Made by a program: the position numbers and the translations under genes
Shown here: piece after piece, positions 42,962-60,007 of the stretch
Layout of the letters: each line of letters begins with the position of its first letter
Numbering within the stretch: the stretch's first letter is position 1
Assembly (NCBI GenBank): GCA_965219995.1
Contig: CBDCOX010000002.1
Location: forward strand, 1,728,001 to 1,792,000
Reading direction: 5' to 3'
Source: Candidatus Latescibacterota bacterium
GTDB lineage: Bacteria; Latescibacterota; UBA2968; GCA-2709665
DNA length: 64,000 nucleotides
The notes under the pieces: model-generated
Databases searched by the model: none
The model's input: only the letters and a program-made list of their open reading frames with translations
Told to the model about the DNA's origin: nothing

Positions 42962-45106
42962 GTGGAATCGCCAAAGCAGGAACCCATCGTGAAAACCGAC
43001 ACCAACTGGAAATCCCGCATCCGTCCCGACCACCCCCGGATCTTCATCAACGGCGACACGCTGCCGGCGATCCGCGCGCGTGCCGCGGGCGGATGCAACG
43101 ACCACTACCTCGAGGTCAGGTCGTTCGCCGAGTCGACGCCTGAGATGGAATGGGCCGCGATCGTCAGGCCGCCGCCCCTGCCCGACGGCACGGAAGTGCG
43201 CGATTGGGGCCATCGGATGATGTGCTCCGCCATCGTCCATCTCGTGGAACCTGCGGCCGACCGACGTACACGGCTCATTTCCGAATTGCGCGCGAGCGCG
43301 GAATACTACCACGCCTGTTACGCGGAGGACGAATCCGTCAACTGGTATGCCGCGAGCCGCGCCGCGTGCCTGGTTACCCTGGACTGGATCTGGAATGAAC
43401 TCGACCCGGAGGACCGGCGCGAGATCGGCCTGCGTCTGCTGGACCACGTGGACGAAGCGCTTCACAAGCCCGGCATCCGTCGCCGCAACGGTTCCGACCA
43501 CCGCAGCGGATTCTACGGCGCGCCCAGCCTGGCCTGGTTCGCGGGCCTCCTGCTTTACGGAGAAGGCTTCGACGACGATCGGGCGGCCCGTTTTCTCGAT
43601 CAGGGATACGACGACCACGTCAAGCTGCTGGTTCACCGCGCGTCCTCGTGCGGCGACGACGGCGGCGAAGCTTCGCCCACGCTCGGGTACGCGTTCGGCG
43701 AATACCCCCTGGCGCAATGGAACTTCATCCATACCGTCCAATCGTCGACCGGTGAAGACATTTCCGGAAACTGGCCGCACATCCGCATGTTTCCCAACTA
43801 TGTCATCTGGAACTGGCTTCCCGGCGACCTCGAGTTCGGGTACGGCGACAACGCACACACCGATAACCGAATGCGGACTAACTGGATGTACACCCATATG
43901 TCCCACATCATGCACTTCTTCGGCGGGACCCATCCGGAGTGGGCCGGACTGGCGCGAACCATTCGGGACATGGCCGGCGGCGGATTCCCGCCGGACAAGT
44001 GGCCGATCTATCCGTTTCTGCTCGACGGTCCGGATACCGCGCCTCCGGCTCGAGGGCCGGGCATCCTTCCGCCCGCCCGTCATTTCGAGAACCTGGGTCA
44101 ACTCTTCATGCGTTCAGGTTCCAGTGACGCCGACACGTATGCCCTGTTTTGCGGCGGGGGCAGCCTGAGAAGCCACCGCCATTACGACGCCACTCACTTT
44201 ACGATTTTCAAGAACGGATTCCTCGCGCTTGACAGCGGCACACGCCAGGGAAACACCGACAACCTGCAGAACTACTACGCGCAGACGGTCGCCCACAACT
44301 GCGTCCTTATCAAGATGCCCGGCGAAGCGCCATCGCCGTACTGGAACGGCGAGGTCTACGGGCAGGCCGGTGGACAGAACAAACCAATCGGCTCGGAGAT
44401 TACCGCTTTCGAAACCAACCCCGAGTTCACATACGTCGCCGCCGACGCCACTCCGGTCTACAATGCCGACAAATGCGCCCTCATGGTCCGGCAGTTCGTC
44501 TTTCTGCCGCCCGACCATTTCGTCGTATTCGACCGGGTCACGTCCACTTGCGCCGGGTACGACAAGACCTGGCTTCTGCACCACGCCAACGAACCCGTGG
44601 TCGAAGGCGCCTCATGGCGGTCGGACCAGCATCAGGGACGCATTATTGCGCGGACACTGTTACCGGAAGACGCCGTGCTGGACAAGGTCGGCGGGCCGGG
44701 CAGGGAATTCCTCGCCGACGGCGTCAACTATGCGATCGACGAGGGCCCGTCGCGGCTCATCGTTGAGAACAAATATCCGATCGGCAGGATGCAGTACGAC
44801 GAAATTCCCGAGCTTATGGGCCGCTGGCGGATGGAAGTCAGACCGGGCACGGACCGCAAAGAGGACCTGTTCCTGCATCTCATACAGGTTGGAGATCGGA
44901 ATCTGCAAAGGATGGACGAAGCGGATGTCAGCGTCTCCCGGAACGGTGTCGAACTCGACTTCATCGCGTGCGGCAGTCGCGTCGTGATCTCGTTCGCGGC
45001 CTCCGGAGAGACCGGCGGTCATATCACGCGTATCCGGAACGGGGAGCGGCTTGTAGACAAGGACCTCGCCGGGGATGTACAGGCCCAGGCCGGTCTCGCC
45101 ACATAA
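42962..45106 (+). CDS. Heparinase II/III family polysaccharide lyase-like protein
   Basis: DHPRIF, FMRSG, HRHYD..HFTI, LALDSG, YAQTVAHN, VVFDRV. Confidence 0.85.
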   Translation: MESPKQEPIVKTDTNWKSRIRPDHPRIFINGDTLPAIRARAAGGCNDHYLEVRSFAESTPEMEWAAIVRPPPLPDGTEVRDWGHRMMCSAIVHLVEPAADRRTRLISELRASAEYYHACYAEDESVNWYAASRAACLVTLDWIWNELDPEDRREIGLRLLDHVDEALHKPGIRRRNGSDHRSGFYGAPSLAWFAGLLLYGEGFDDDRAARFLDQGYDDHVKLLVHRASSCGDDGGEASPTLGYAFGEYPLAQWNFIHTVQSSTGEDISGNWPHIRMFPNYVIWNWLPGDLEFGYGDNAHTDNRMRTNWMYTHMSHIMHFFGGTHPEWAGLARTIRDMAGGGFPPDKWPIYPFLLDGPDTAPPARGPGILPPARHFENLGQLFMRSGSSDADTYALFCGGGSLRSHRHYDATHFTIFKNGFLALDSGTRQGNTDNLQNYYAQTVAHNCVLIKMPGEAPSPYWNGEVYGQAGGQNKPIGSEITAFETNPEFTYVAADATPVYNADKCALMVRQFVFLPPDHFVVFDRVTSTCAGYDKTWLLHHANEPVVEGASWRSDQHQGRIIARTLLPEDAVLDKVGGPGREFLADGVNYAIDEGPSRLIVENKYPIGRMQYDEIPELMGRWRMEVRPGTDRKEDLFLHLIQVGDRNLQRMDEADVSVSRNGVELDFIACGSRVVISFAASGETGGHITRIRNGERLVDKDLAGDVQAQAGLAT

Positions 45107-45170
45107 GGGCAGGTTCGGGCGGGCCGATGAAAGGTCTCAAGTTTCTCACCCTTTGACGAAGAGACGCCAG

Positions 45171-46073
45171 ATGACCGAATTTCGGGGCATCTACCCCGCG
45201 CTGATTACGCCAATGACGCCTGAAGGAGAATTCAACGAAGCGGCCTTCCGACGGCTCATGGAATACAACATAAGTGCCGGGGCGCACGGCTTCTGGGTAG
45301 CGGGCGGCGCCGGCGAAAGCGTATTGCTGGACGACGAGGAGAATTCCCGCATTGCCGAAGTCGCCGCCGACCAGGCGGCCGGCCGCGCCGGAATCATCAT
45401 GCACGTGGGGGCGCCTACCACCGCGCGCGCCGCCAGGATGGCCGAAAATGCGGCAAACGCCGGCGTCGACGCCATCTGCGCCGTACCTCCTTTCTTCTAC
45501 CGGCCCGGGCCGGACGAGGTCGCAGAACACTACCGGGCGGTCGGCGCGGCCGCGGACCTTCCGCTTTTCATCTACAACATTCCCGGCGCGACCGGCGTCG
45601 AGATCACCCTCGAACTGGCGGAGAAGATCCGGCAGCACGTGCCGCAACTTTCCGGACTGAAGCATTCGGCGCCCGCGTTTGCAAACACCCGTCATTTCGC
45701 CAGTATGGGCCTTTCGTGCCTCATCGGCAGCGCGGCGCTTCTCCTTCCTGCACTCACCATCGGCGCTTCGGGCTGCGTGGATGGCCCCCTGTCACTTTCT
45801 CCGGACGTCTGGGTCAATATCTGGACGGCGTATCACCGCGGAGACATGAAATCCGCCGAAGCCGACCAGAAACGGGCGGCCGAACTCTATACGATCTTCA
45901 ACCGAGCCGGATATATCGCGTCCATGAAGGCCCTGCTATCAGAGAAACTCGGGATCGACTGCGGGGACCCGCGCCCCCCGCAACGCCCGCTCACCGGCGA
46001 GGAGAGAGCCTTTGTCATCCGTACGGCGACAGCGCTGGGGATGATGGAATCCGTAATTGTCGACGGCCGATGA
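45171..46073 (+). CDS. DHDPS/NanA/KDG-aldolase family lyase
   Basis: GIYPALITP, GGAGES, IYNIP, GLKHS. Confidence 0.88.
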   Translation: MTEFRGIYPALITPMTPEGEFNEAAFRRLMEYNISAGAHGFWVAGGAGESVLLDDEENSRIAEVAADQAAGRAGIIMHVGAPTTARAARMAENAANAGVDAICAVPPFFYRPGPDEVAEHYRAVGAAADLPLFIYNIPGATGVEITLELAEKIRQHVPQLSGLKHSAPAFANTRHFASMGLSCLIGSAALLLPALTIGASGCVDGPLSLSPDVWVNIWTAYHRGDMKSAEADQKRAAELYTIFNRAGYIASMKALLSEKLGIDCGDPRPPQRPLTGEERAFVIRTATALGMMESVIVDGR

Positions 46074-46149
46074 CCGTTCAGGAACATGACGATGGACCCG
46101 TCCGTCGCATTTTGCGACACATTGGACCCGATTCACGGAGATTGCGTAT

Positions 46150-47061
46150 ATGATCCCCTTACTCAGCAGCCTGTGCTACGGAACGCTTGAAGTCTGCCAG
46201 CTTCCAAGGACCTGGTGGAAAGTCCTGCTCCGGAACGCGGGCATTCTCGACGAAGAGTATCCCGACGTCAGCGAAGGCCTGGACAAGTCCGTCCTCGAAG
46301 TGCTGAAACTGGACAGAGAGACGACCCTGGCGTATCTGCGGGAGACCACGCCCGACTATCTTCAGTTCGAAGCCTGGGTCCTCGGACAGAACGACGGAAC
46401 GCTGGACCGACAGGCAATCGAAAACTGGAATGATTCCGTGCGCAACCGCGTTCACACGCGACCCGACAAGCTCGAAGAAACCACAGGCGACATCGGCATT
46501 CCCAACGACGGCGCGATCACATCGGCCGTGATCCTCAACAGCCTCCAGGACTGGATGCTCTTCTACAGACGGGACCTGGCGGGGGGATTCTCATCCCTGC
46601 GCGGCACCGTGGTTCCTCTCGTCTCCAGCCTGGACTACGGTCCTCTCAACGTCTGCCAACTCCCTCGTACGTGGCTGAAGATATTGCTCAGGTCCCGGAA
46701 CCTGCTTCACCCGGACTATCCCGATATGACCGAAGACGGACTGGACCCCCGCGTCCTGCGCGCCATCAACATCCGGCCGGACGACGCCCTCCGTTTCATC
46801 AGAGACAATGCGCCTACCTATCTCGACTTCGAAGCCTGGGTTCTGGATAAAAACGACGGCCGTGTCGACCCGCGCGCCGTGGAGGAGTGGAACAGCTTTG
46901 TGCGGACCCGCATCCATACCGAAGAGAAAATCGTCGATATTCACAATACGCTGGGCCTGGCAAACGACGGAAGCCTGACCTCCGCCGTGGTCCTGAACCA
47001 CGTTGAAGACTGGCACTTCGCGCATGCCGACCTGACGGGCAACACCGCCGGGTCGACCTGA
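46150..47061 (+). CDS. Tandem-duplicated DUF5069-like domain protein
   Basis: Two ~145-aa internal repeats PL.SSL.YG.L.VCQLPRTW.K..L...YPD...GLD...P.YL.FEAWVL...TSAV.LN...DW. Confidence 0.75.
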   Translation: MIPLLSSLCYGTLEVCQLPRTWWKVLLRNAGILDEEYPDVSEGLDKSVLEVLKLDRETTLAYLRETTPDYLQFEAWVLGQNDGTLDRQAIENWNDSVRNRVHTRPDKLEETTGDIGIPNDGAITSAVILNSLQDWMLFYRRDLAGGFSSLRGTVVPLVSSLDYGPLNVCQLPRTWLKILLRSRNLLHPDYPDMTEDGLDPRVLRAINIRPDDALRFIRDNAPTYLDFEAWVLDKNDGRVDPRAVEEWNSFVRTRIHTEEKIVDIHNTLGLANDGSLTSAVVLNHVEDWHFAHADLTGNTAGST

Positions 47062-47161
47062 CCGGCCGGCCCAGGCAGAGGGCCGTAGTGGTATTGCGTA
47101 CGACATTGGCGAACATATACGTCTGTCCGTTTCGACATTGGATCAACCATCTGTTTTGTTG

Positions 47162-47190
47162 TTGACATCATCCGAACTTTGAGTTAAAAT
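47162..47190 (+). promoter_or_regulatory. Near-consensus sigma70 promoter heading the repeat/WD40 locus
   Basis: TTGACA-N17-TAAAAT; CGACATTGG direct repeats at 47101 and 47133 just upstream. Confidence 0.8.
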
Positions 47191-47228
47191 ACCATTAAAT
47201 TCAGGTATTAGTTTACATTGTCGGAAAA

Positions 47229-47426
47229 CAGCACCGGCCGGATTGTACGGGAGGTGATACTCGAAACCACGCCGTTAAGTGTCTCGTCGTTGTACGACTT
47301 GTTTCAGGCGGTGATCGGCGGAAGAATTGGCTACAGCCGGTCACGGGTTTGTTCGGATAAAAAGGGGAGGTGATCGTCGAAACCACGTCGCCAAACGTTT
47401 TGCCGATGTACATCTACGTGAGAAAC
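47229..47426 (+). ncRNA. Candidate two-unit structured non-coding motif, copy A
   Basis: Cores GGAGGTGAT-N4-GARWCCACGYCG-N6-GTY-N4-YG-N-TGTAY at 47250 and 47366; homologous pair at 57378/57493. Confidence 0.5.
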
Positions 47427-47607
47427 TGTGGCTCGGGGAATTCCTGAAATGACACGTCGCGCTGTGTGTGAACGGTCGATTCCGTTATAATCCCACACCG
47501 CGTCTCTTCAGATTACCGGCATACCTTCCAGGTTGATCCCAGAATCCCATCAAGCACAGTCTCTTCATACGGTTTCATCTCAGTAAATCCCTCGTATTCA
47601 CTTGAAT

Positions 47608-48324
47608 CGGTGTCCGTGGGGCGGTTGGGCTGTACGCCTGCCGCATGAATCACGGGGCTCGCCGGATTCATGTGATTCACTGTCCGGGGTGGGATTGGGT
47701 GGCGCGCCCTGCGCCTTCCGTCAAGGTTGATCTCCCTGTAATCGCGTGATTCACTGTCCGAATTGCATCCGGGTAGCATGCCGTGCATCCTCCTGACGGC
47801 AAACACCCGAATCATATGATTCGCGTTCCACGGGGCGGCTGGCCTGAGCGCCTTTCGCTTTAATCACGGCAATCACTCGTGGCATATGTATCGCAGTCCG
47901 GGTTGTGGATGAGCGGCGCGCCCTGCGTCCTCATTGCGGTTGATCTTCCTGCATTCACGTGAGTCACTGTCGTTGGTGGCCGCTGGATGGCGGATCCTGT
48001 GCCTTCATCACAGTTTTTCACTCTGTTTTCTTGAATCGCTGCCCCGCGTGCGGCCGAGCGGCGCGCCCTGCGCCCTCCAGCACGGCATTCACCCTGATCG
48101 TATGATCCGCTCTCCGTGGTGCGGCTGGGCTGCAAGCCTTCCGCCTTAATCACGGAAATCATTCGAATCATACGGATCACAGGCCGGCGTGCGATTCGGC
48201 GACGTGTCTTCCGCTTCACCTTCCCGGTAAATCTATCATGATCACGGGCATCAAGGCCCGGATTCGGCCGAGCGGCGGGCCGCGCGGTTTGATCAATGTC
48301 AATACGTTCAGTCACAGTCACTCC
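47608..48324 (+). repeat. Degenerate tandem array, 10 units of 70-74 bp with 9-bp-phased AATC ladders
   Basis: Unit anchors (CACTGTCCG-like) at 47608, 47678, 47752, 47822, 47892, 47965, 48037, 48108, 48178, 48252. Confidence 0.75.
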
Positions 48325-48511
48325 AGTGTTCTGTCCCCGAAATAAGTTGCCTAAATTCGGCCGTCGAGTCGCCCGGCTCGCGAGGCGCCAGAGCGCAGGC
48401 GACCTGGCCGGGTCGGCGAGCGATGGCACTTCGACAAGCTCAGTGCAAGCAACGCTGCGAGACGGGATGAATCGGCGGATGAATGGTGAAGTATTTTTGG
48501 GACAGGACACT
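48325..48511. mobile_element. MITE family B (187 bp) carrying an internal REP-like hairpin
   Basis: TIRs AGTGTTCTGTCCCCGAAATA and (revcomp) AGTGTCCTGTCCCAAAAATA, 17/20 match; GCACTTCGACAAGCTCAGTGC at 48426-48446. Confidence 0.75.
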
Positions 48512-48530
48512 CGTCAGGGAGGGCGTTCAG

Positions 48531-50615
48531 ATGAACAGGACATTGATATTGAGCACTGTTCTTCTCCTGGCGACTGTCTTGTTTGCACCGGACAGCGGTG
48601 CACAGGATTACAATCGCTGGAGCTTGCCCGAAGGGGCCCTGATGCGGCTGGGCAAAGGAGATGTGCGCGACGTGGTCTGGTCGCCGGACGGAACGCGCCT
48701 GGCAGTGGGAGGCAGCATCGGCATCTGGCTCTACGATGCCCGCACCGGGGCGCAAACCCGCCTGATCACAGGACATTCGTTCCGGGTCAATGCGGTTGCG
48801 TTTTCGCCCGACGGCCTGACGCTGGCAAGCGGCAGCCGGGACCATACGGTGCGGCTTTGGTACGTGGCCACAGGACAGGAGAAAAGCATCCTCACAGGAC
48901 ATACCGACGACGTTGAAGCGGTGGCATTCTCGCAGGATGGAACGACGGTGGCAAGCGCCGGAAGCGACTCCACGGTGCGGGTGTGGAACGTGGCCACAGG
49001 GGAGGAACGACACACGCTCACGGGACACGTCGGAAAAGTTGGGGCGGTCGTGTTTTCACCAGATGGTCTGACGCTGGCAAGCGCCGCAAGCGACTCTACC
49101 GTGCGGGTGTGGGACCTGGCCACAGGGGAGGAACGACACACGCTCGCGGGACATGTCGGAGAGGTTTGGTCGGCCATCGGAATGGCCCGGTCGGTCGTGT
49201 TTTCACCAGATGGTCTGACGCTGGCAAGCGCCGCAAGCGACTCTGCGGTACGGGTGTGGGACGTGGCCACAGGGCAGGAGGAATACACCCTTACAGGACA
49301 TACCGATGATGTCTCTTCGGTGGCGTTTTCGCCGGATGGGGCGACGCTGGCAAGCGGCAGTTTCGGCAGGACGGTGCGGGTGTGGGACGTGGCCACCGGA
49401 CAAGAAAGACACGCCCTGACGGGACATACCTCGTCTGTCAGGTCGGTGGTGTTTTCGCCCGATGGGACGACGCTGGCAAGCGCCGACTGGCACAATAAGA
49501 TGCGCGTGTGGGACGTGGAAACGGGGCAGAGACAAAGCACGCTCACCCTCACTGGGCATACGCGCGCAGTACGTTCGGTGGCGTTTTCGCCGGATGGATC
49601 AACGCTGGCCAGTGGCGGTACCGACCTTTCGGTGCGACTGTGGGACGTGGCCACAGGGCAAGATCTACGCACCTTCACAGGACATACCGCTTCGGTCAGG
49701 TCGGTTGCGTTTTCGCCCGACGGGGCGACGCTGGCAAGCGGCAGTTTCGACGGGACGGTGCGGATGTGGGACGTGGCGACAGGGCACGAGAAAAACACGC
49801 TCGAGGGACATTCACGGTTTGTCTGGACGGTGGCATTTTCGCCCGACGGAAAAACGCTGGCAAGCGCGGGCGGAACCGACCTTACGGTGCGGGTGTGGGA
49901 CGTGGCCACAGGGCAGGAAAAACACGTCCTGAGGGGACACACGGCCATCGTCTATTCGGTGGCGTTTTCGCCGGATGGCAGAACGCTGGCAAGTTCCAGT
50001 CAGGACAGGACGGTGCGGTTGTGGGACCCGGCCACAGGGAATGAGAAAAACACGATCGCAGCACATACCCGTTGGATCTATTCGTTGGCGTTTTCACCCG
50101 ATGAGACGACGCTCGCAGGCCCCGATGGCGATGGTACGGTGCGGGTGTGGGACGCGGCGACAGGACGGCTTATTCGCACCCACACTGCATATAAAGAGAG
50201 TTTCCTGTCGGTGGCGTTTTCGCCCGACGGGGCAACCCTCGCGACCGGCAGTCTGCGCAATCCGGTGTGGTTGTGGAACATGGCCACAGGGCAGGATATA
50301 CGCACCTTCACGGGACATACCTTTCCGGTCAGTTCGGTGGTGTTTTCTCCGGATGGGAAAACGCTGGTAAGCGGCAGTTACGACGGCACGATATTGCTGT
50401 GGGACGTCTCGTCACGAACCGCACTGCAACCCCTTGCCGCCGACTTCGACGGCGACGGGGCCGTGGGTTTTTCCGACTACCTGCAATTCGTCGCGAAGTA
50501 CGGGCTGAGCTGGGGAGATGCGGAATATGACGCACGCTTCGATCTGGACGGCGACGGTACCGTCTCGTATGGCGACTGGACGATCTTCAGACGCAGCTTC
50601 GGCCGGGGCGGATGA
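48531..50615 (+). CDS. Secreted WD40 repeat protein 1 (14 repeats, C-terminal EF-hand/dockerin-like pair)
   Basis: Signal peptide then QDYNRWSLPEGA.MRLGKG; GH...FSPDG..LAS...D.TVR.WD repeats; DFDGDG...DLDGDG tail; ATG 48531 after GGGAGGG. Confidence 0.92.
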   Translation: MNRTLILSTVLLLATVLFAPDSGAQDYNRWSLPEGALMRLGKGDVRDVVWSPDGTRLAVGGSIGIWLYDARTGAQTRLITGHSFRVNAVAFSPDGLTLASGSRDHTVRLWYVATGQEKSILTGHTDDVEAVAFSQDGTTVASAGSDSTVRVWNVATGEERHTLTGHVGKVGAVVFSPDGLTLASAASDSTVRVWDLATGEERHTLAGHVGEVWSAIGMARSVVFSPDGLTLASAASDSAVRVWDVATGQEEYTLTGHTDDVSSVAFSPDGATLASGSFGRTVRVWDVATGQERHALTGHTSSVRSVVFSPDGTTLASADWHNKMRVWDVETGQRQSTLTLTGHTRAVRSVAFSPDGSTLASGGTDLSVRLWDVATGQDLRTFTGHTASVRSVAFSPDGATLASGSFDGTVRMWDVATGHEKNTLEGHSRFVWTVAFSPDGKTLASAGGTDLTVRVWDVATGQEKHVLRGHTAIVYSVAFSPDGRTLASSSQDRTVRLWDPATGNEKNTIAAHTRWIYSLAFSPDETTLAGPDGDGTVRVWDAATGRLIRTHTAYKESFLSVAFSPDGATLATGSLRNPVWLWNMATGQDIRTFTGHTFPVSSVVFSPDGKTLVSGSYDGTILLWDVSSRTALQPLAADFDGDGAVGFSDYLQFVAKYGLSWGDAEYDARFDLDGDGTVSYGDWTIFRRSFGRGG

Positions 50616-50733
50616 GGCGCGGGCGCCGTCACTCGCTCCATGTCATACCAAGAGCCACATCAAACACAGTCTCTTCATGGGTTTTTAATCAGCCTTTAAT
50701 CAGCTCTTAATCACAGTCCGGGAGGGTATTCAA
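50616..50733 (+). repeat. Conserved WD40 intergenic leader (AATC ladder), before gene 2
   Basis: CACATCAAACACAGTCTCTTCA...TTTAATCAGCCTTTAATCAGCTCTTAATCACAGTCCGGGAGGGTATT. Confidence 0.85.
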
Positions 50734-52815
50734 ATGAAAAGGACAGGAACTTCGAGCATGATTCTTCTCTTGGTTTCTTTCTTGTTCACACAGTTCACCC
50801 ACGCACAGGACTACAATCGCTGGAGCCTGCCGGAAGGCGCCCGCATGCGGCTGGGCAAAGGCAACGTGCGTGACGTGGCGTGGTCACCGGACCGCACGCT
50901 CCTGGCCGTGGGGGGCAGCGTCGGCATCTGGCTATACGATGCCGAAACCGGGGCGGAAGTTTCCCTGATCACAGGACATTCGTTCAGAGTCAATGCGGTT
51001 GCGTTCTCGCCCGACGGTTTGACGCTGGCTAGTGGCAGCCGCGACGATACGGTGCGGTTGTGGGACGTGGAAACGGGACAGGAAAAAAGCATCCTCACGG
51101 GACATACCTACGACGTCGAGGCTGTGGCATTCTCGCTTGACGGTTTGACGCTGGCAAGCGGCAGTCGCGACGGTACGGTGCGGGTGTGGGATTTGAACAC
51201 AGCGCAGGAGAAACATACCCTGTTAAATGACAAGTACCGGGGTCAATTGAATAAGCCCTGGGTCTATTCTGTGGCATTCTCGCCCGATGGTCTGACGTTG
51301 GCCAGCGCCGGAAACGACTCTACAGTGCGGGTGTGGGACGTGGAAACCGGGCAGGAAAAACACACGCTCACCGGACATACCCATCGGGTCTGGTCGGTGG
51401 CTTATTCACCGGATGGCATGACGCTGGCCAGTGCAAGTCTGGACAGCACGGTGCGGTTGTGGGACGTGGAAACGGGACAGGAACGGAGCATCCTGGAAGG
51501 ACATACCCATCGGGTGTATTCGGTGGTGTATTCGCCCGATGGATCGACGCTGGCAAGCGCCAGCCGGGACAGTACCGTGCGGGTATGGGAGGCGGCCACA
51601 GGACAGGAAAAACACACCCTCACAGGCCATACGTCCAGCGTCCGGTCGGTTGCGTATTCGCAGGACGGGATGACGTTGGCAAGCCGCAGTTACGACAATA
51701 CGGTCCGGACATGGGACGTGGAAACGGGACAGGAGAGTCGCATCCTGCGCCTTACAGGGCATACACAATCTGTAAACTCGGTGGCGTTCTCGCCGGATGG
51801 GACCACGCTGGCAAGCAGCGGTAATGATCCCACCATCCGGTTGTGGGTCGTGTCTACGGGGCAGGTAAAGAGCACTTTCGCAGGACAAGGGTCGGTGGCG
51901 TTCTCGCCGGATGGGACCACGCTGGCAACCGGCGGCGGTCGGGACGGAACGATGCATTTGTGGGAGGCGGACACAGGGCAGGAGAAACACACCCTCACAG
52001 GACATACGTCGTCTGTCGTGTCGGTCGCGTTCTCGCCCGATGGATCGATGCTTGCAAGCGCCGGCGGACGGGATGAAACGGTCCGGGTGTGGGACGTGGC
52101 CACAGGGCAGGAGAAAAACACCCTTACGGGACATACGGCGTCTGTCGTGTCGGTCGCGTTCTCGCCCGATGGATCGACACTTGCAAGCGCCGGCGGTCGG
52201 AACGACAATACGGTGAAGATGTGGGATCCGGCAACCGGGCACGAGAAAAAAACCCTCACAGGACATAACGCCGGGCTCCAGGGAGTGGAGTTTTCGCCCG
52301 ACGGGGCGACGCTTGCAAGCGCCGACTCTCGGGGTACGGTGCGGTTGTGGGACGCGGCCACCGGGCGCGAGAAAAAAACCCTCACGGTACCTGGAGAGAA
52401 TTTCTTTTCGCTGGCGTTTTCACCGGATGGGACAACGCTGGCAACCAGCAGTCCGCACAAGGCGGTGTGGCTGTGGGACGTTGTCACCGGGCAGAATATA
52501 CACGCACTCAGGGGACATACAGATCCGATCTGGTCGGTGGCGTTTTCGCCGGATGGGACGACGCTGGCAAGCGCCAGTTACGACTGTACGATTCTGCTGT
52601 GGGACGTCTCGTCACGTGACGCTCTGCAACCGCTTGCCGCCGACTTCGACGGCAACGGGTCCGTTGGTTTTTCCGACTACCTGCAATTCGTCGCAAAGTA
52701 CGGGCTGAGCTGGGGAGATGCCGGATATGACGCACGCTTCGACCTCGATGGCGACGGCGAGGTAGGGTCCCGCGATTGGTGGATATTCGGTAAAAGCTTC
52801 GGCCAGGGCGGATGA
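50734..52815 (+). CDS. Secreted WD40 repeat protein 2
   Basis: Same architecture as gene 1, 14 repeats. Confidence 0.92.
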   Translation: MKRTGTSSMILLLVSFLFTQFTHAQDYNRWSLPEGARMRLGKGNVRDVAWSPDRTLLAVGGSVGIWLYDAETGAEVSLITGHSFRVNAVAFSPDGLTLASGSRDDTVRLWDVETGQEKSILTGHTYDVEAVAFSLDGLTLASGSRDGTVRVWDLNTAQEKHTLLNDKYRGQLNKPWVYSVAFSPDGLTLASAGNDSTVRVWDVETGQEKHTLTGHTHRVWSVAYSPDGMTLASASLDSTVRLWDVETGQERSILEGHTHRVYSVVYSPDGSTLASASRDSTVRVWEAATGQEKHTLTGHTSSVRSVAYSQDGMTLASRSYDNTVRTWDVETGQESRILRLTGHTQSVNSVAFSPDGTTLASSGNDPTIRLWVVSTGQVKSTFAGQGSVAFSPDGTTLATGGGRDGTMHLWEADTGQEKHTLTGHTSSVVSVAFSPDGSMLASAGGRDETVRVWDVATGQEKNTLTGHTASVVSVAFSPDGSTLASAGGRNDNTVKMWDPATGHEKKTLTGHNAGLQGVEFSPDGATLASADSRGTVRLWDAATGREKKTLTVPGENFFSLAFSPDGTTLATSSPHKAVWLWDVVTGQNIHALRGHTDPIWSVAFSPDGTTLASASYDCTILLWDVSSRDALQPLAADFDGNGSVGFSDYLQFVAKYGLSWGDAGYDARFDLDGDGEVGSRDWWIFGKSFGQGG

Positions 52816-52922: not shown

Positions 52923-55004
52923 ATGAAAAGGACAGGAACTTCGAGCATGACTCTTCTCTTGGTTTCTTTCTTGTTCACACAGTTCACCCACGCACAGGAC
53001 TACAATCGCTGGAGCCTGCCCGAAGGCGCCATAATGCGTCTGGGCAAAGGAAACGTGCTCCGCGTGGCCTGGTCGCCGGATCGTACGCTGCTGGCCGTTG
53101 GCGGCACCGCCGGCATCTGGCTCTACGATTCCCTAACGGGAGAGGAAATTTCCCTGATCACAGGACACTCGTTCAGAGTCAATGCGGTTGCATTCTCGCC
53201 CGATGGTCTGACGCTGGCAAGCGGCAGTCGCGACGATACGGTGCGGTTGTGGGACGTGGAAACGGGACAGGAAATAAGCATCCTCACGGGACATACCTAC
53301 GACGTCGAGGCAGTGGCTTTCTCGCCGGACGGGACGACCCTGGCAAGCGGGAGTCGGGACGGTACGGTGCGGGTATGGGACGTGGCCACACGGCAGGAGA
53401 AACATACCCTCTTGAACGAAAGCTACCAGGCGTGGGATAGTCCCTGGGTCCTTTCGGTAGCGTTTTCGCCAGATGGCCTGACGCTTGCAAGCGCCAGTCT
53501 TGACACTACGGTGCGTGTGTGGAACGTGACCACAGGGCGGGAACAACACGCACTAAGAGGACATACCAGGAGGATACGCTCTCTGGTGTTTTCATCTGAC
53601 GGATTGACGCTGGCAAGCGCCGGAAACGACAGTACCGTGCGGCTGTGGGACGTGGAAACGGGACAGGAAGAGCGCTCCCTGAAAGGACATACCCACGTGG
53701 TGAATTCGGTGGTGTATTCGCCGGATGGATCGACACTGGCAAGCGGCGGTTGGGACAATGCGGTACGGTTATGGGACACGGCCACCGGACAGGAGAAAAG
53801 CACCCTCACAGGTCATACCCGCGGGGTCCGTTCGGCTGTATTTTCTCCAGATGGGATGACGCTGACGAGCGCCGGTTGGGACAATACGGTGCGACAGTGG
53901 GACGTGGAAACGGGACACGAGCAAAGCACCCTCACCCTTACCCTCACGGGACATTCCCGTGAAGTACATGCGGTGGCGTTCTCTCCGGACGGCAAGACGC
54001 TTGCAAGCGGCAGTTGGGACAGGACTGTGCGGTTGTGGGACGTGGTCACAGGGCAGGAGAACAACACCCTTACGGGACATACCAGTTCGGTCAGGTCGGT
54101 GGCGTTTTCGCCGGATGGCAAGACGCTGGCAAGTGGCGGTTTCGACAGGACCGTACGGTTGTGGGACGTGGCCACAGGGCAGGAGAACAACACCCTCACG
54201 GGACACACCGGTCGGGTCGGGGCGGTTGCGTTTTCTCCAAATGGGGCGACGCTTGCAAGCGCCGATGGCGACGGTGAGGTGCGGTTGTGGGACGTGGCCA
54301 CCGGACAGGAACAGCACGCCCTCACGGGACATTCGGATATTGTCTATTCGGTGGCGTTTTCTCCGGATGGCAGAACGCTGGCAAGTTCCAGCGGGGACAG
54401 CACGGTGCGGTTATGGGATACGGCCACCTGGCAGGAAAGAAACACCCTTTCAGGGCATTCACGTTGGATCCATTCGGTGGCATTTTCACCCGATGGGGCG
54501 ACGTTGGCAAGCGCCGATGGCAACGGTACGGTGCGGCTATGGGACGTGGCCGCAGGTCAGCACATACGCGCCCTCACGTCCGGAGATAATTTCTGGTCGG
54601 TGGCGTTTTCGCCGGATGGAACAACGCTGGCAACCGGCAGTCCGTTCAAGGCGGTGTGGTTGTGGGACGTGGCCACCGGGCAGGACATACGCACACTTAC
54701 TGGACATACCGATCCGGTTAGATCAGTGGTTTTTTCGCCGGATGGGACCACGCTGGCAAGCGGCAGTTACGACTGTACAATTTTTCTGTGGGATGTCTCG
54801 TCACGTGCCTCACTGCAAGCCCTTGCCGCCGACTTCGACGGCGACGGAACCGTGGGTTTTTCCGACTACCTGCAATTCGTAGCGAAATACCGGCTGAGCT
54901 GGGGAGATGCGGGATACGACGCGCGCTTCGACCTGGATGGCGACGGTGAGATCAGCTCCGCCGATTGGTCGATATTCAGAAAAAGCTTCGGCCGGGGTGG
55001 ATGA
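52923..55004 (+). CDS. Secreted WD40 repeat protein 3
   Basis: Same architecture, 14 repeats; true start ATG 52923 (MKRTGTSS) after GGGAGGG. Confidence 0.92.
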   Translation: MKRTGTSSMTLLLVSFLFTQFTHAQDYNRWSLPEGAIMRLGKGNVLRVAWSPDRTLLAVGGTAGIWLYDSLTGEEISLITGHSFRVNAVAFSPDGLTLASGSRDDTVRLWDVETGQEISILTGHTYDVEAVAFSPDGTTLASGSRDGTVRVWDVATRQEKHTLLNESYQAWDSPWVLSVAFSPDGLTLASASLDTTVRVWNVTTGREQHALRGHTRRIRSLVFSSDGLTLASAGNDSTVRLWDVETGQEERSLKGHTHVVNSVVYSPDGSTLASGGWDNAVRLWDTATGQEKSTLTGHTRGVRSAVFSPDGMTLTSAGWDNTVRQWDVETGHEQSTLTLTLTGHSREVHAVAFSPDGKTLASGSWDRTVRLWDVVTGQENNTLTGHTSSVRSVAFSPDGKTLASGGFDRTVRLWDVATGQENNTLTGHTGRVGAVAFSPNGATLASADGDGEVRLWDVATGQEQHALTGHSDIVYSVAFSPDGRTLASSSGDSTVRLWDTATWQERNTLSGHSRWIHSVAFSPDGATLASADGNGTVRLWDVAAGQHIRALTSGDNFWSVAFSPDGTTLATGSPFKAVWLWDVATGQDIRTLTGHTDPVRSVVFSPDGTTLASGSYDCTIFLWDVSSRASLQALAADFDGDGTVGFSDYLQFVAKYRLSWGDAGYDARFDLDGDGEISSADWSIFRKSFGRGG

Positions 55005-55121
55005 GGCGCACGTGCCGTCACTCCCTCCAGGTCATTACACGAACCACATCAAACACAGTCTCTTCATGGGTTTTAATCAGCTTTTAATCAGCTCACAATC
55101 ACAGTCCGGGAGGGTATTTAG
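55005..55121 (+). repeat. Conserved WD40 intergenic leader, before gene 4
   Basis: CACATCAAACACAGTCTCTTCATGGGTTTTAATCAGCTTTTAATCAGCTCACAATCACAGTCCGGGAGGG. Confidence 0.85.
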
Positions 55122-57224
55122 ATGAAAAGGCTAACGATTTTGGGCCTCATTTTTCTCTCGACGTCTGCCTTGTTTGCACAGAACACCCACGCACAGGACT
55201 ACAATCGCTGGAGCCTGCCAGAAGGCGCCATTATGCGTCTGGGCAAAGGGTACGTGTGGGACGTGGCATGGTCGCCGGACCGCACGCGCCTGGCCGTCGG
55301 GGGTACCGCCGGCATCTGGGTCTACGATGCGAGCACCGGAGAGGAAGTTTCCCTGATCACTGGACATTCCTTCAGAGTCAATGCCGTTGCGTTTTCACCC
55401 GATGGTCTGACGCTGGCGAGCGGCAGTCGGGACGATACGGTGCGGTTGTGGGACGTAGCCACAGGACAGGAAAAAAGCATCCTCACGGGACACAGGTACG
55501 ACGTCGAGGCGGTGACATTCTCGCCGGATGGGGCGACGCTGGCAAGCGGCAGTCGCGACGGCACGGTGCGGGTGTGGGACGTGGACACAGGGCAGCAAAA
55601 ACACAGGCTAATCAATGAAAAGTACCCGGACAGGTTGAGTAACCCCTGGGTCGTGTCCGTGGTGTTTTCTCCCGATGGTCTGACGCTTGCAAGCGCCAAT
55701 CGGGACACGACGGTGCGGGTATGGGACGTGGAAACGGGGCAGGAAAAACACACCCTCACACAACATACGGGGAGGGCACTCTCGGTGGCTTTCTCGCCAG
55801 ACGGGATGACGCTGGCCAGTGCAGGCCAGGACAGTACGGTGCGGGTATGGGACGCGGCAACGGGGCAGGAAAAACACACCCTCACACAACATACCCATTG
55901 GGTGTATTCGGTGGTGTATTCGCCGGATGGGGCGACGCTGGCAAGCGCCAGCCGGGACAGTACCGTACGGGTGTGGGACGCGGACACAGGACAGGAGAGG
56001 AGTATCCTCACAGGACATACGTCCAGCGTCAGATCGGTTGCGTATTCACAGGATGGAGTGACGCTGGCAACCCGCAGTTTCGACAGTTCGGCGCGGGCGT
56101 GGACGGTGCGGGTGTGGGACGTGGATACGGGGCAGGAGAAAAGCACCCTCACCCTCACAGGGCATACGTGGTCTGCCAATTCGGTGGTGTATTCGCCGGA
56201 TGGGACGATGCTGGCAAGCGGCAGTAACGACAATACGGTGCGGTTATGGGACGTGGACACAGGGCAGCATATACGCACCTTCGAAGGACATACCCGTGGT
56301 GTCGGTCCGGTGGCGTTTTCGCCGGATGGGACGACCCTGGCAAGCGGTGGCGGCTATCGGGACCCAACGGTGTGGTTGTGGGACGTGGACACAGGGCAGG
56401 AGAAGAATACCCTCACAGGACATACGGCGTCTGTCGAGTCGGTGGCGTTCTCGCCGGACGGGAAAACGCTGGCAAGCGCGGGCGGTCGGGACGAAACCGT
56501 GCGGTTGTGGGACGCGGCCACAGGACAGGAGAAAGACACCCTCACGGGACATACGGCGTCTGTCTCGTGGGTGGTGTATTCGCCCGACGGATCGACGCTT
56601 GCAAGCGCCAGTTACGACCATACCGTGAAGTTGTGGGATTCGGCAACCGGGCAGGAGAAGAACACCCTTACAGGACATAACGAAGCGATCCATGCGGTGG
56701 TGTTTTCGCCCGACGGGAAAACGCTTGCAAGCGCCGATACTGACGGTACGGTGCGGTTGTGGGACGCGGACACAGGGCAGCACATACGCGAACTCGCCAG
56801 CGGCGATAACTTCTGGACGCTGGCGTATTCGCCGGATGGGATGACGCTGGCAACCGGCAGTCCGTTCAAGGCGGTGTGGCTGTGGGACGTACCCTCAGGG
56901 CAGAATATACGCGCCCTCACGGGACATACTGATCCGATCAACTCGGTGGTGTTCTCGCCGGATGGCAGAACGCTGGCAAGCGCCAGTTACGACTGTACGA
57001 TTCTCTTGTGGGATGTCTCGTCACGTGCCGCTCTGCAACCCCTTGTCGCCGACTTCGACGGCGACGGGTCCGTGAGCTTTTCCGACTTTCTGCAATTCGC
57101 CGCGAAGTTCGGGCTGAGCTGGGGAGACGCGGGATTTGACGAACGCTTTGACCTGGACAACGACGGGGATATCGGGTATCCCGATTGGTCGATCTTGCAA
57201 AAAAGCTTTGGCCGGGGCGGATGA
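55122..57224 (+). CDS. Secreted WD40 repeat protein 4
   Basis: Same architecture, 14 repeats. Confidence 0.92.
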   Translation: MKRLTILGLIFLSTSALFAQNTHAQDYNRWSLPEGAIMRLGKGYVWDVAWSPDRTRLAVGGTAGIWVYDASTGEEVSLITGHSFRVNAVAFSPDGLTLASGSRDDTVRLWDVATGQEKSILTGHRYDVEAVTFSPDGATLASGSRDGTVRVWDVDTGQQKHRLINEKYPDRLSNPWVVSVVFSPDGLTLASANRDTTVRVWDVETGQEKHTLTQHTGRALSVAFSPDGMTLASAGQDSTVRVWDAATGQEKHTLTQHTHWVYSVVYSPDGATLASASRDSTVRVWDADTGQERSILTGHTSSVRSVAYSQDGVTLATRSFDSSARAWTVRVWDVDTGQEKSTLTLTGHTWSANSVVYSPDGTMLASGSNDNTVRLWDVDTGQHIRTFEGHTRGVGPVAFSPDGTTLASGGGYRDPTVWLWDVDTGQEKNTLTGHTASVESVAFSPDGKTLASAGGRDETVRLWDAATGQEKDTLTGHTASVSWVVYSPDGSTLASASYDHTVKLWDSATGQEKNTLTGHNEAIHAVVFSPDGKTLASADTDGTVRLWDADTGQHIRELASGDNFWTLAYSPDGMTLATGSPFKAVWLWDVPSGQNIRALTGHTDPINSVVFSPDGRTLASASYDCTILLWDVSSRAALQPLVADFDGDGSVSFSDFLQFAAKFGLSWGDAGFDERFDLDNDGDIGYPDWSILQKSFGRGG

Positions 57225-57349
57225 TGCGAACAAACGGTATCGGAAACCTGTCGCTCCAGATGTGCATTAAGGCAGGTTACCCACTCCTTCGGATGTGTTC
57301 GTGGGATGAGAGTTGAAGTCATAACAGACGTCTGTACTTACAATCTATC

Positions 57350-57558
57350 GATCACCTAATCTGGCTGCGTCCGGGAAGGAGGTGATATCGGAGTCCACGT
57401 CGAGGAGAGTCAGATTGTTGTACGTCTGCTTCAACGCGATGATCGCCGTCACAAGTGGTTATGCCGACCACGGATCGGATCGCGTTCTGAAAGGAGGTGA
57501 TATTGGAATCCACGTCGTTAGACGTCTTACCGCTGTATGCCTAAGTAAGAACTACGTG
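57350..57558 (+). ncRNA. Candidate two-unit structured non-coding motif, copy B
   Basis: Cores at 57378 and 57493 align without gaps to 47250 and 47366. Confidence 0.5.
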
Positions 57559-57646
57559 TCGGAGCAAGTGGTGAACGGAAACGCTGCGCTATATAAGGTA
57601 TCGAACAATGCCGCTGACCCGTGAAAAACTTGCCTCTACGCATCGT

Positions 57647-57752
57647 CCTCACTCGCTCCAGGTCATCACAAGAATCACATCAGACACAGTCCCTTCATGT
57701 GTTTTAATCCGCCTTTAATCAGCTCTTAATCACAGTCCGGGAGGGTATTCAG
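57647..57752 (+). repeat. Conserved WD40 intergenic leader, before gene 5
   Basis: CACTCGCTCCAGGTCATCACAAGAATCACATC...TTTAATCAGCTCTTAATCACAGTCCGGGAGGG. Confidence 0.85.
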
Positions 57753-59843
57753 ATGAAAAAGTCAACGATTCTGACCGTCACTCTTATTGTGTCAGCGGCT
57801 CTGTATGCGCAAAACACCCACGCGCAGGACTACAATCGCTGGCGCCTGCCGGAAGGGGCCCTCATGCGTCTGGGCAAAGGGACCGTGCTAAACGTGGCAT
57901 GGTCGCCGGACCGCACGCGCCTCGCCGTCGGGGGTTCCGTCGGGATCTGGCTCTACGATGCCCGAACGGGGGAGGAAATGTCCCTGATCACAGGACATTC
58001 GTTCAGAGTCAACGCGGTTGCGTTTTCGCCTGACGGCCTGACGCTGGCGAGCGGCAGTCGCGACGATACCGTGCGGTTGTGGGACGTGGAAACCGGGCAG
58101 GAAAAGAGCATTCTCACGGGACACAGGTACGACGTCGAGGCAGTGGCATTCTCACCGGATGGGACGATGCTGGCAAGCGGCAGTCGCGACGGTACGGTGC
58201 GGTTGTGGGACGTGGAGGCAAGTCAGGAGAAAAGCACCCTCGTCAATGAAAAGTACCGGGGCAACTTGAATAGCCCCTGGGTCGTGTCCGTGGTGTTTTC
58301 GCCCGATGGGGCGACGCTGGCAAGCGCCAGCCGGGACAGTACCGTGCGGGTGTGGGACGTGGCCACAGGGCAGGAAAAACACACGCTCACGGCACATACC
58401 CATGAGGTTTGGTCGGTGGCTTTTTCGCCGGACGGAATGACGCTGGCCAGTGGGGGTCGGGACAATACGGTGCGGGTGTGGGACGTGGAAACGGGACAGG
58501 AAAAGTTCACCTTGGACGGGCATACCCATTGGGTGTATTCAGTGGTGTTTTCGCCCGACGGGTTGACTCTGGCAAGCGCCAGTCGGGACAGTACGGTCCG
58601 GATGTGGGACGCGGTGGCGGGGCGTGAGAAAAATACCCTCACTGGGCATAAGTCCAGAGTCCAGTCGGTTGCGTATTCGCAGGACGGGAGGACCCTGGCA
58701 AGCCGCAGTTTCGACAATGCGGTGCGGGTATGGGACGTGGACACTGGGCAGGAAAGAAGCACCCTCACCCTCACAGGGCACACTTCCTCTGTCAATTCCG
58801 TGGTGTATTCGCCGGATGGGACGATGCTGGCAAGCGGCAGTAACGATCGTACGGTGCGGCTATGGGACGTGGACACCGGGCAGGATATACGCACCTTCAC
58901 GGGACATACCCGTGGGGTCAGTTCGGTGGCATTTTCGCCGGATGGGTCGACCCTGGCAAGTGGTGCCGGCTATCGGGATGACACGGTGCGGTTGTGGAAC
59001 GCGGCCACAGGGCAGGAGAAAGACACCCTCGAAGGACATACGGGCGCCGTAAGGACTGTGGCGTTTTCGCCGGATGGGTCGACCCTGGCAAGTGGTGGCG
59101 GCTTTCGGGATGAAACGTTGCGGGTGTGGAACGTGGCCACAGGGCAGGAGAAATACACCCTCACAGCACATACCGATGATGTCTCTTCGGTGGCGTTTTC
59201 CCCCGATGGTCAGACCCTGGCAAGCGCAAGTCACGACCAGACGGTGCGATTGTGGGATCCGGCAACCGGGCAAGAAAAATTCACCCTCACAGATCATACC
59301 CGGGCGATCCAGGGGGTGGCGTTCTCGTCCGATGGGGCAATGCTGGCAAGCGCCGATATCAGAGGTACGGTGCGGGTGTGGGACGTGGCGACCGGTCAGC
59401 ATTTGCGCGCCCTCACAGGCGGCGATAATTTCTGGTCGGTGGCGTTTTCGCCGGATGGGACCACGCTGGCAACCGGCAGTCCGTACAAGGCGGTGTGGTT
59501 GTGGGACCTGGCCACGGGGCAGAATATACGCGCCCTCACGGGACATACCGATCCGATCAATTCAGTTGTGTTTTCGCCCGATGGCAGAACGCTTGCAAGC
59601 GCGAGTTACGACGGTACGATTCTGCTGTGGGATGTCTCGTCACGTGCCACGCTGCAGCCCCTTGCCGCCGACTTCGACGGCGACGGCACCGTGGGCTTTA
59701 CCGACTTTCTGCAATTCGTCGCGAAGTATGGGCTGCGCTGGGGAGATGCGGGATATGACTCGCGTTTCGACCTTGACGGCGATGGAGAGGTCGGGTCCTG
59801 GGATTGGCGGATCTTCGGCCAAAGCTTCGGCAGGAGTAACTGA
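57753..59843 (+). CDS. Secreted WD40 repeat protein 5
   Basis: Same architecture, 14 repeats. Confidence 0.92.
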   Translation: MKKSTILTVTLIVSAALYAQNTHAQDYNRWRLPEGALMRLGKGTVLNVAWSPDRTRLAVGGSVGIWLYDARTGEEMSLITGHSFRVNAVAFSPDGLTLASGSRDDTVRLWDVETGQEKSILTGHRYDVEAVAFSPDGTMLASGSRDGTVRLWDVEASQEKSTLVNEKYRGNLNSPWVVSVVFSPDGATLASASRDSTVRVWDVATGQEKHTLTAHTHEVWSVAFSPDGMTLASGGRDNTVRVWDVETGQEKFTLDGHTHWVYSVVFSPDGLTLASASRDSTVRMWDAVAGREKNTLTGHKSRVQSVAYSQDGRTLASRSFDNAVRVWDVDTGQERSTLTLTGHTSSVNSVVYSPDGTMLASGSNDRTVRLWDVDTGQDIRTFTGHTRGVSSVAFSPDGSTLASGAGYRDDTVRLWNAATGQEKDTLEGHTGAVRTVAFSPDGSTLASGGGFRDETLRVWNVATGQEKYTLTAHTDDVSSVAFSPDGQTLASASHDQTVRLWDPATGQEKFTLTDHTRAIQGVAFSSDGAMLASADIRGTVRVWDVATGQHLRALTGGDNFWSVAFSPDGTTLATGSPYKAVWLWDLATGQNIRALTGHTDPINSVVFSPDGRTLASASYDGTILLWDVSSRATLQPLAADFDGDGTVGFTDFLQFVAKYGLRWGDAGYDSRFDLDGDGEVGSWDWRIFGQSFGRSN

Positions 59844-59895
59844 AGCGAACAATCGGTGTAGGAAACAGGTACCGCCAATTGTCTCCACGAATCCA

Positions 59896-60007
59896 TCACT
59901 CGGTTCAGGTCGTCAACAAACTCACATCAAACACTGTCTATTCGTGCCGTTAAATCATAGTCAATCCCTCGTAATCAAAGTCAATCATCGTCAGGGAGGG
60001 CATTCAG
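59896..60007 (+). repeat. Divergent WD40 intergenic leader, before gene 6
   Basis: CACATCAAACACTGTCT...AATC x4 at ~10-bp spacing...TCGTCAGGGAGGGCATTCAG. Confidence 0.7.

Follow-up and report, generated by a model that had tools for sequence, protein, structure and literature searches.

A start-less spacer element complementary to the 16S rRNA 3' end ahead of secreted WD40 genes in one genus of Latescibacterota

The WD40 gene array and its spacers

The 64-kb window (the whole stretch of DNA that was analysed) comes from the genome of what is presumably an uncultured symbiont of the FCB group, and most of the metagenome runs that contain it carry a sponge label. A heparinase II/III-like gene, a DHDPS-family gene and a DUF5069 gene (window 42962-47061) are followed on the 3' side by six tandem genes of about 700 amino acids, each encoding 12-13 WD40 repeats (Pfam) and, as read from the sequence, a signal-peptide-like N-terminus and a dockerin-like C-terminus. 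The element described here is present in two copies, copy A in the spacer between the DUF5069 gene and the first WD40 gene and copy B in the spacer between the fourth and fifth WD40 genes, each copy consisting of two units. A first-pass annotation, made from the letters of the sequence, had confined copy A to 47229-47426. This extent proved too narrow, since the two copies are homologous across approximately 430 nt (~47170-47600 and ~57300-57750). Independent sponge metagenome contigs (run X5) covered 47072-47898 with 8 differences and 56975-57679 with 0 differences, and thus span both copies, so the arrangement is not an artefact of one assembly. The features of the locus are listed below.

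47162-47190, plus strand: predicted sigma-70-like promoter, TTGACA-17-TAAAAT, called from an 11/12 consensus match only
47250-47365, plus strand: unit A1 (first-type), core GGAGGTGAT-ACTC-GAAACCACGCCG, a contiguous run of 9 bases that complements the 16S 3' end, CTC where a start codon would be expected
47366-47470, plus strand: unit A2 (second-type), core GGAGGTGATC-GTC-GAAACCACGTCG, a contiguous run of 10 bases that complements 16S, GTC where a start codon would be expected
47519-47600, plus strand: copy of the common leader, C-rich and G-poor (..CCTTCCAGGTTGATCCCAGAATCCCATCAAGCACAGTCTCTTCAT..), homologous to 57650-57740
48531-50615, plus strand: WD40 gene served by copy A, first of the array, likely true start ATG 48531 after GGGAGGG (listed ORF start 48483)
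57378-57492, plus strand: unit B1 (first-type), 11 contiguous 16S-complementary bases (AAGGAGGTGAT), TCG at the would-be start position
57493-57600, plus strand: unit B2 (second-type), GAAAGGAGGTGAT from 57489 being perfectly complementary to the 16S 3' end over 13 bases
57640-57752, plus strand: C-rich common leader with, at its end, the true ribosome-binding site of the WD40 gene (GGGAGGG, 7 nt, ATG 57753)
57753-59843, plus strand: secreted WD40-repeat gene served by copy B, 696 aa, Pfam WD40 E value 2e-158, signal-peptide-like N-terminus

The synteny of the heparinase II/III-like, DHDPS-family and DUF5069 genes just 5' of a unit and the WD40 array was seen in all 14 congener loci that reach far enough (16 fetched), and DUF5069 homologues with 43-62% identity are widespread among other Latescibacterota. 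The listed starts of two of the WD40 open reading frames (48483 and 52812) are probably too early; a GGGAGGG-N7-ATG lies at 48531 in one case and some 110 nt into the 52812 frame (to ~52925) in the other. The corrected starts are followed by signal-peptide-like MNRT.. or MKRT.. sequences, and the upstream parts of those frames are translated common leader.

The spacers of the array take two forms. The short form (118-165 nt; for example 50615-50734, 55004-55122 and 59843-60008) is leader alone, with about 105 nt of the C-rich common leader, ending in GGGAGGG-N7-ATG, making up the entire spacer before the unit-less WD40 genes at 50734, ~52920, 55122 and 60008. The long form (~530 nt) contains one or two units plus the leader, and also a degenerate second copy of the first 20 nt of the leader directly past the stop codon. 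The units are part of an optional long spacer form, and since four of the six WD40 genes in the window have none, the element is dispensable for expressing a cistron. Family-wide, the C/G ratio reaches up to 2.0 at +120 to +200 past a unit, within the C-rich, G-poor leader that spans +100 to +240, in a genome of 60.6% G+C.

The spacer before the first WD40 gene contains additional repetitive DNA. A degenerate array of repeats of approximately 71-74 nt occupies window 47580-48300, with five copies of a 54-nt core that are 61-100% alike. Each repeat has a GGCGCGCCCTGCGCC hairpin-like core, and the repeat start, TGATTCACTGTCCGGGG, resembles the AATCACAGTCCGGGAGGG that lies just 5' of the true WD40 ribosome-binding site. 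A similar degenerate array follows the first-position unit in several congeners; Tandem Repeats Finder gives no report for the 47580-48300 array. Immediately 5' of the first WD40 gene, at 48325-48511, lies a dispersed MITE-like repeat of approximately 187 nt, and another 20 copies of nearly full length, with 76-84% identity, are scattered over the chromosome in either orientation. In four metagenome runs the depth of contigs shows a roughly ten-fold jump over 48013-48754.

A conserved motif and its restriction to one genus

The pattern GGAGGTGAT-N4-GARWCCACGYCG matched the 64-kb window exactly four times, at 47250, 47366, 57378 and 57493, all on the plus strand, against 0.01 matches expected from shuffles and with none of 100 shuffles reaching four; these four are also the only copies in the genome (5.44 Mb, two contigs). 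The four units had been reported in the first-pass annotation at these positions with periods of 116 nt (A1 to A2) and 115 nt (B1 to B2), and both the positions and the periods were reproduced, as was the gapless alignment of the units, which are identical pairwise at 28-35 of 46 positions.

In order to examine the units as a family, we collected them by a motif search allowing up to 4 mismatches in 17 sources, namely the window and 16 fetched congener loci, and obtained at least 61. All 61 share the strand of the WD40 genes. Their sites are long spacers within tandem arrays of ~700-aa secreted WD40 genes or at the start of such arrays, 90-150 nt past the preceding stop and approximately 190-320 nt (mostly 250-280) before the next WD40 start. 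Single units number 33, and there are 14 pairs with a spacing of 110-119 nt. When 61 genomes were searched with up to 2 mismatches, the motif was found in 13 of the 14 other genomes of the genus and in none of the seven genomes of the family's four other genera; more distant relatives gave scattered single matches, and the reversed-pattern control gave one. A BLAST analysis with a 161-nt unit also recovered 13/14 congeners and 0/7 of the other-genus genomes, and in an exact-pattern scan of 185,579 species genomes the multi-copy loci were confined to this group, with approximately 80 single matches in unrelated phyla. Single matches outside the genus can be coding look-alikes, as in the class-level relative L005, where a match with 2 mismatches (~1500) lies inside a cysteine-synthase-like gene (..KVILDSTSGNTG..). 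We rejected a decayed PLP-enzyme gene as the origin of the motif on this example, as the likeness stops at the 25-nt pattern and is probably due to chance.

The 16S rRNA of this genome has the 3' end GGATCACCTCCTTTC, and the unit consensus GAAAGGAGGTGAT is a perfect complement of its last 13 bases. The E. coli 30S subunit shares the CCUCC core of this end, though not its entire tail. A complement of 13 nt far exceeds the length of a working Shine-Dalgarno (SD) sequence. The full complement is present in 18 of the 61 units, and 45 have at least 9 contiguous complementary bases. The first-pass annotation had pointed out complementarity to a typical 16S 3' end; measured against the genome's own 16S, with runs of 9, 10, 11 and 13 bases in A1, A2, B1 and B2, it is stronger than was claimed. 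Logo positions 0-8 and 13-24 are inflated, the copies having been gathered with the motif itself, while the conservation of GAAA (positions -4 to -1; 1.0-1.4 bits) is free of this ascertainment because it lies outside the search pattern. The least conserved part of the core is formed by the four bases where a start codon would fall, 5 nt downstream. Elsewhere in the genome many AAAGGAGGT sites are followed 5-8 nt later by an ATG and a long frame, and against this normal SD use the start-less copy is exceptional.

Past the SD complement conservation is patchy for approximately 90 nt (GAA.CCACGTCG, AAACGT, CCG, GTA, TACGTGAGAAACT and GCTCGGGGCAAGTG), the conserved tail of unit A2 being TACGTGAGAAACT..GCTCGGGG. 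Information content approaches 2 bits in the core and amounts to 1.0-1.4 bits at the patches GAAA, AAACGT, CCG and GTA, which are free of ascertainment; a few bases away it drops below 0.6 bits. The CCACGTCG half showed no complementarity to 16S beyond 7-mers, and the SD stretch is not specially accessible, with a predicted unpaired probability of 0.33 versus 0.39 across all 13-nt windows. The conserved feature of the units is their primary sequence.

The predicted promoter lies 88 nt before A1, and its predicted start would place A1 approximately 50-55 nt into the transcript. Seven of the 17 sources (the window, L041, L037, L039, L044, L046 and L047) have identical hexamers 5' of their first-position unit and an eighth (L043) has a weaker form, TTGACA-17-TAAACT, at a distance of 88 or ~171 nt from the unit; the search for sigma-70-like promoters was negative at 53 of the 61 units. 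A sigma-54 and an ECF promoter were also considered and rejected, as judged by eye, for unfit spacings and the lack of GG in the A units.

A primary sequence conserved in patches, without RNA structure or coding signal, might also be expected if the unit were a DNA operator or promoter-proximal module for a sequence-specific, probably multimeric, regulator of the WD40 cassettes, its SD likeness being inherited from an old gene start. We consider this rather unlikely. The ACGT cores at +19, +29 and +50 of the unit are 10 and 21 nt apart and paired units, 115-116 nt apart, are separated by about 11 helical turns, an apparent helical-phase spacing that was read by eye from the consensus. A palindrome, TGGA-A-TCCA or GGATCC, occurs in many copies, but is missing from both A units of the window (TCGAAACCA). 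The restriction of the units to long spacers would fit as well, since such spacers could hold internal promoters, yet at the 53 units mentioned above none of the sigma-70-like type was seen, and no regulator gene is evident beside the array. An operator also leaves unexplained why the best-kept stretch corresponds exactly to the 16S complement, GAAA included.

In congeners, the WD40 arrays end with a gene of 390-400 aa that has no Pfam match (MDREDLRERLE.LE.RLRWQKR..; for example L042 8506-9684). The array in this genome is without that gene, and a 69% identical paralogue lies 330 kb away (G000:C2:2105430-2106629).

The working SD and start of this end-of-array gene occupy the place of the second unit in three congener loci (L040, L041 and L045). 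This would be in keeping with the units being functionless relics, that is, pieces of a former gene start, comprising the SD and the first codons, that were duplicated together with the WD40 cassette through unequal recombination and homogenised by gene conversion. The array plainly arose by tandem duplication, gene number varies among the congeners, and the long spacer has an apparent degenerate second copy of the beginning of the leader past the stop. However, conservation across 13 species is very uneven, near 2 bits in the core and below 0.6 bits nearby, and such a pattern is produced by selection, not by gene conversion. In addition, the native start region of the end-of-array gene (AAGGAGGCAGAAAATGGA) shares little with the unit beyond the SD, and the comparative data lean toward slower substitution in the core than in the neighbouring spacer and at synonymous sites. 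A relic is therefore, in our judgment, an unlikely explanation.

Coding potential and RNA structure of the units

The units were analyzed for signs of protein coding. From the differences between A1 and B1 over 81 nt, the first-pass annotation had argued that the element is non-coding; our recount upheld the flat spread over codon positions, although not the exact numbers (26 differences, 9/7/10, in place of 28, 7/10/11). The non-coding call itself was confirmed with a matched coding control. The unit block gave a pN/pS of 0.76-1.05 and a flat entropy by codon position (0.61/0.60/0.67), whereas WD40 coding DNA of these cassettes, over its first 102-192 nt, gave a pN/pS of 0.32-0.37 and entropies of 0.35/0.22/0.57. 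Across all six frames of the unit pN/pS was 0.72-1.06, the column entropy had no three-base period (0.77/0.71/0.82), indels that are not multiples of three occurred in 5 of 44 aligned non-first units, and no Pfam match was obtained for unit-overlapping frames on either strand. Two specific frames were considered and ruled out. The first starts with the GTG inside GGAGGTG (VILESTSLNVLPMYIYVRNCGSGQVLK, 'VILESTS...') and is contradicted by pN/pS, the flat entropy and the matched control; the second runs from GGA (GGDIGIHVAKRFAAVHLREKLWLGASAE; GGDIGIHVAKRF..LREKLWLGASAE) and is contradicted by the six-frame pN/pS together with the same entropy and control.

A start codon at the 5-nt spacing was present in 20 of the 61 units, in every case TTG, and absent from the other 41. 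In the window, ATG, GTG and TTG are all absent 5 bases past GGAGG from three of the four units, as had been noted at first pass, the exception being B2, in which TTG opens a frame of 13 codons only. Among the 61 units frame length ranges from 7 to at least 80 codons, with 27 codons in 14 units, 34 codons in 8 and a stop within 17 codons in 14. A conserved start, an open frame and purifying selection, by which a small protein or leader peptide would be recognized, were not found in the units. The units are non-coding.

Leader-peptide/Rho attenuators of the tna, mgtA and corA type have a strong ribosome-binding site, a short frame and a C-rich, unstructured tract before the regulated gene, and several of these components have counterparts here. 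A unit could be a decayed leader ORF that ends just before a C-rich, G-poor Rho loading site and so subjects the WD40 gene to Rho-dependent attenuation. The consensus with TTG at the ideal 5-nt spacing (20/61), the frames that stop after 27 or 34 codons at approximately +85 to +106, the C-rich tract that comes next and the presence of Rho in the genome (702 bits) all agree with this. The start codon and frame are, however, not conserved as they are in the attenuators: a translation-dependent device should keep its start, which 41 of the 61 units lack at that spacing, and the early stops (14/61) and the frame-breaking indels (5/44) point in the same direction. The C-rich tract also precedes the unit-less genes and so is not tied to the unit. 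We regard attenuation of this kind as quite unlikely.

The first-pass annotation had further proposed a structured small RNA or tandem switch-like leader, had suggested a search of Rfam, and had named a lack of covariation among homologues as an outcome that would speak against such an RNA. Two tandem units, the presence of CAC upstream of GTG in most copies, and the ATCACCT upstream of B1 (57352-57358), which by inspection has the potential to pair with and sequester AGGTGAT, could all be taken to favor a structured RNA. The Rfam search returned no match at the gathering score in the whole 64-kb window, the scan by which copy B was covered, and a permissive scan around copy A (47050-48500) yielded no more than three hits to snoRNA and lncRNA models, all at chance level (E 5-10). 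Applied to 44 units, RNAalifold predicted three pairs, between GTG and the CAC downstream of it, at -0.06 kcal/mol and without compensatory changes; for 23 whole leaders it gave -3.9 kcal/mol. The inner stems, whose pairing had appeared to be retained despite differing sequence in the four units, did not hold up in the wider family: in 44 non-first units 54.3% of cells were paired versus 53.6% in shuffles, and 209 of 500 shuffles were as high. The closure of CAC on GTG was paired in 83.7% of cells because both sides are conserved, with no pair altered on both sides, and hence it received no support from covariation.

No convincing covarying helix emerged from a scan of all column pairs, and a search for a conserved terminator found none. 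The idea that the core pairs with an anti-SD-like ATCAC..CTCC of the leader was also rejected, as such pairing was no better than in shuffled leaders (mean z -0.27; 2/47 below -2). With no Rfam match, practically no RNAalifold consensus structure and no stem covariation, the reading of the unit as a structured RNA, whether cis-regulatory (for example a tandem riboswitch-like leader) or a small RNA, is highly improbable, and by its own criterion it is already refuted at the present sampling depth.

Proposed ribosome docking and comparison with known systems

The element is real, conserved, specific to the genus and to its strand and context, non-coding, unstructured and complementary to 16S, and can be classed neither as a gene nor as a riboswitch-like RNA. 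For a conserved SD from which no protein starts, ribosome docking is the only established role that we know of. By analogy we tentatively propose, as a possibility that falls short of being probable, that the units are start-less 30S docking sites, similar to the STAB-SD discussed below, that shield the WD40 mRNA from 5'-end-dependent decay. The first-pass annotation had suggested a decoy for ribosomes or for an RNA-binding protein; the ribosome form of that idea is kept as the best available reading, an inferred one. In such a scheme the unit would be carried, in the sense orientation of a presumed transcript, in the 5' leader or long intercistronic spacer of the secreted WD40 genes. A 30S subunit would dock on the 16S-complementary stretch and, in most copies, would be unable to start translation. 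The ribosome parked there would remain as a durable block close to the transcript's 5' end, or to that of a processed segment, and would shield the WD40 message downstream of it from 5'-end-dependent decay.

Models for RNase J (TIGR00649 and PF17770) each had 0 matches in this 98.6% complete genome, with controls positive in 13/14 and 7/14 genomes. An RNase E/G homologue (345 bits; an RNase G-sized frame of 520 aa) and two RNase Y genes are present. Given that no RNase J was found, the nuclease that is blocked would be RNase E/G or RNase Y. The conserved downstream patches (GAA.CCACGTCG, AAACGT, CCG, GTA and TACGTGAGAAACT) are not accounted for by 30S docking, and they may represent a second binding site.

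It is tempting to speculate further that the start-less 13-nt super-SD and the C-rich tract approximately 100 nt behind it act together as a sensor of free ribosomes, which we consider very unlikely. Plentiful 30S subunits would park on the unit and the message would survive, escaping Rho or RNase E/G and RNase Y, while a scarcity of ribosomes would shut off the WD40 eukaryote-like proteins. If such a sensor were real, it would be a modular, duplicable ribosome-parking cassette for the host-interaction genes of a sponge symbiont, and the first STAB-SD-like device working without RNase J.

To our knowledge, very few functional SDs that start no protein have been described, chiefly in Firmicutes mRNAs guarded from RNase J1. 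The present element is an extreme form, with 13 complementary bases, often doubled, before up to ten paralogous genes. The symbiont seems to be without RNase J. If the element works as proposed, parked ribosomes would be a more general means of insulating segments of long mRNAs. WD40 eukaryote-like proteins may mediate interactions with the host. Secreted WD40 'eukaryote-like' proteins have been reported from sponge-associated Latescibacterota (PMC12993501), and the element may be a handle on the expression of such proteins. With a core of 25 nt it is readily testable by one-step mutation in a heterologous reporter.

Several other systems offer points of comparison. A polypurine stabiliser has been described in mycobacterial katG, where translation is needed (PMC2358910). 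An antitermination site of the ops/RfaH or LoaP type was rejected, as the genome has no NusG paralogue (PF02357 identifies one gene, a housekeeping-sized NusG), and so was a CsrA/RsmA-binding leader, as CsrA was not found (PF02599, 0 matches in the genome). The effect of upstream ribosome-binding sites and mini-ORFs on RNase E scanning in E. coli was reportedly studied by Lodato et al. in 2012. According to another E. coli report, upstream ribosome-binding sites impede RNase E scanning in proportion to their 16S complementarity, protection is suggested to be limited by the transience of ribosome binding so that a staying ribosome should obstruct better, and trapping with retapamulin is given as a test (PMC9943677). 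The likeness to the present element is that protection there tracks 16S complementarity, and that this genome has an RNase E/G homologue; the difference is that the obstacles described there include both a start codon and a short frame (PMC9943677), and a start at the proper spacing is missing from 41 of the 61 units.

A different kind of obstacle, STAB-SD, is found in Firmicutes, whereas the present element is in Latescibacterota. As the 5' stabiliser of cry3A, STAB-SD is said to go back to Agaisse and Lereclus in 1996. It has been described as an SD-like sequence that does not direct initiation, binds the 30S subunit, stabilises the Bacillus thuringiensis cry3A mRNA and blocks RNase J1 (PMC4113751). 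The two are alike in that the sequence is SD-like, complementary to the 16S 3' end and located in a long 5' untranslated region, more than 100 nt before the real start (PMC4113751). All of the units lie in spacers ahead of WD40 genes. A start codon 5 nt past GGAGG is missing from 41/61 units, and no frame had a coding signal, yet 20/61 units have TTG there. The action proposed for STAB-SD, a bound 30S shielding the mRNA downstream, would by analogy be the same here. They differ in that the present element is longer (the 13-nt complement plus ~90 conserved nt), is often doubled and is repeated before many paralogous genes, and in that neither model (TIGR00649/PF17770, 0 matches) detected in this genome an RNase J1, the 5'-3' exonuclease that STAB-SD blocks. 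Thus, the element is closest to STAB-SD, but given that it does not share the dependence on RNase J that defines STAB-SD, it is better described as a variant that may act in a STAB-SD-like manner than as a member of that class.
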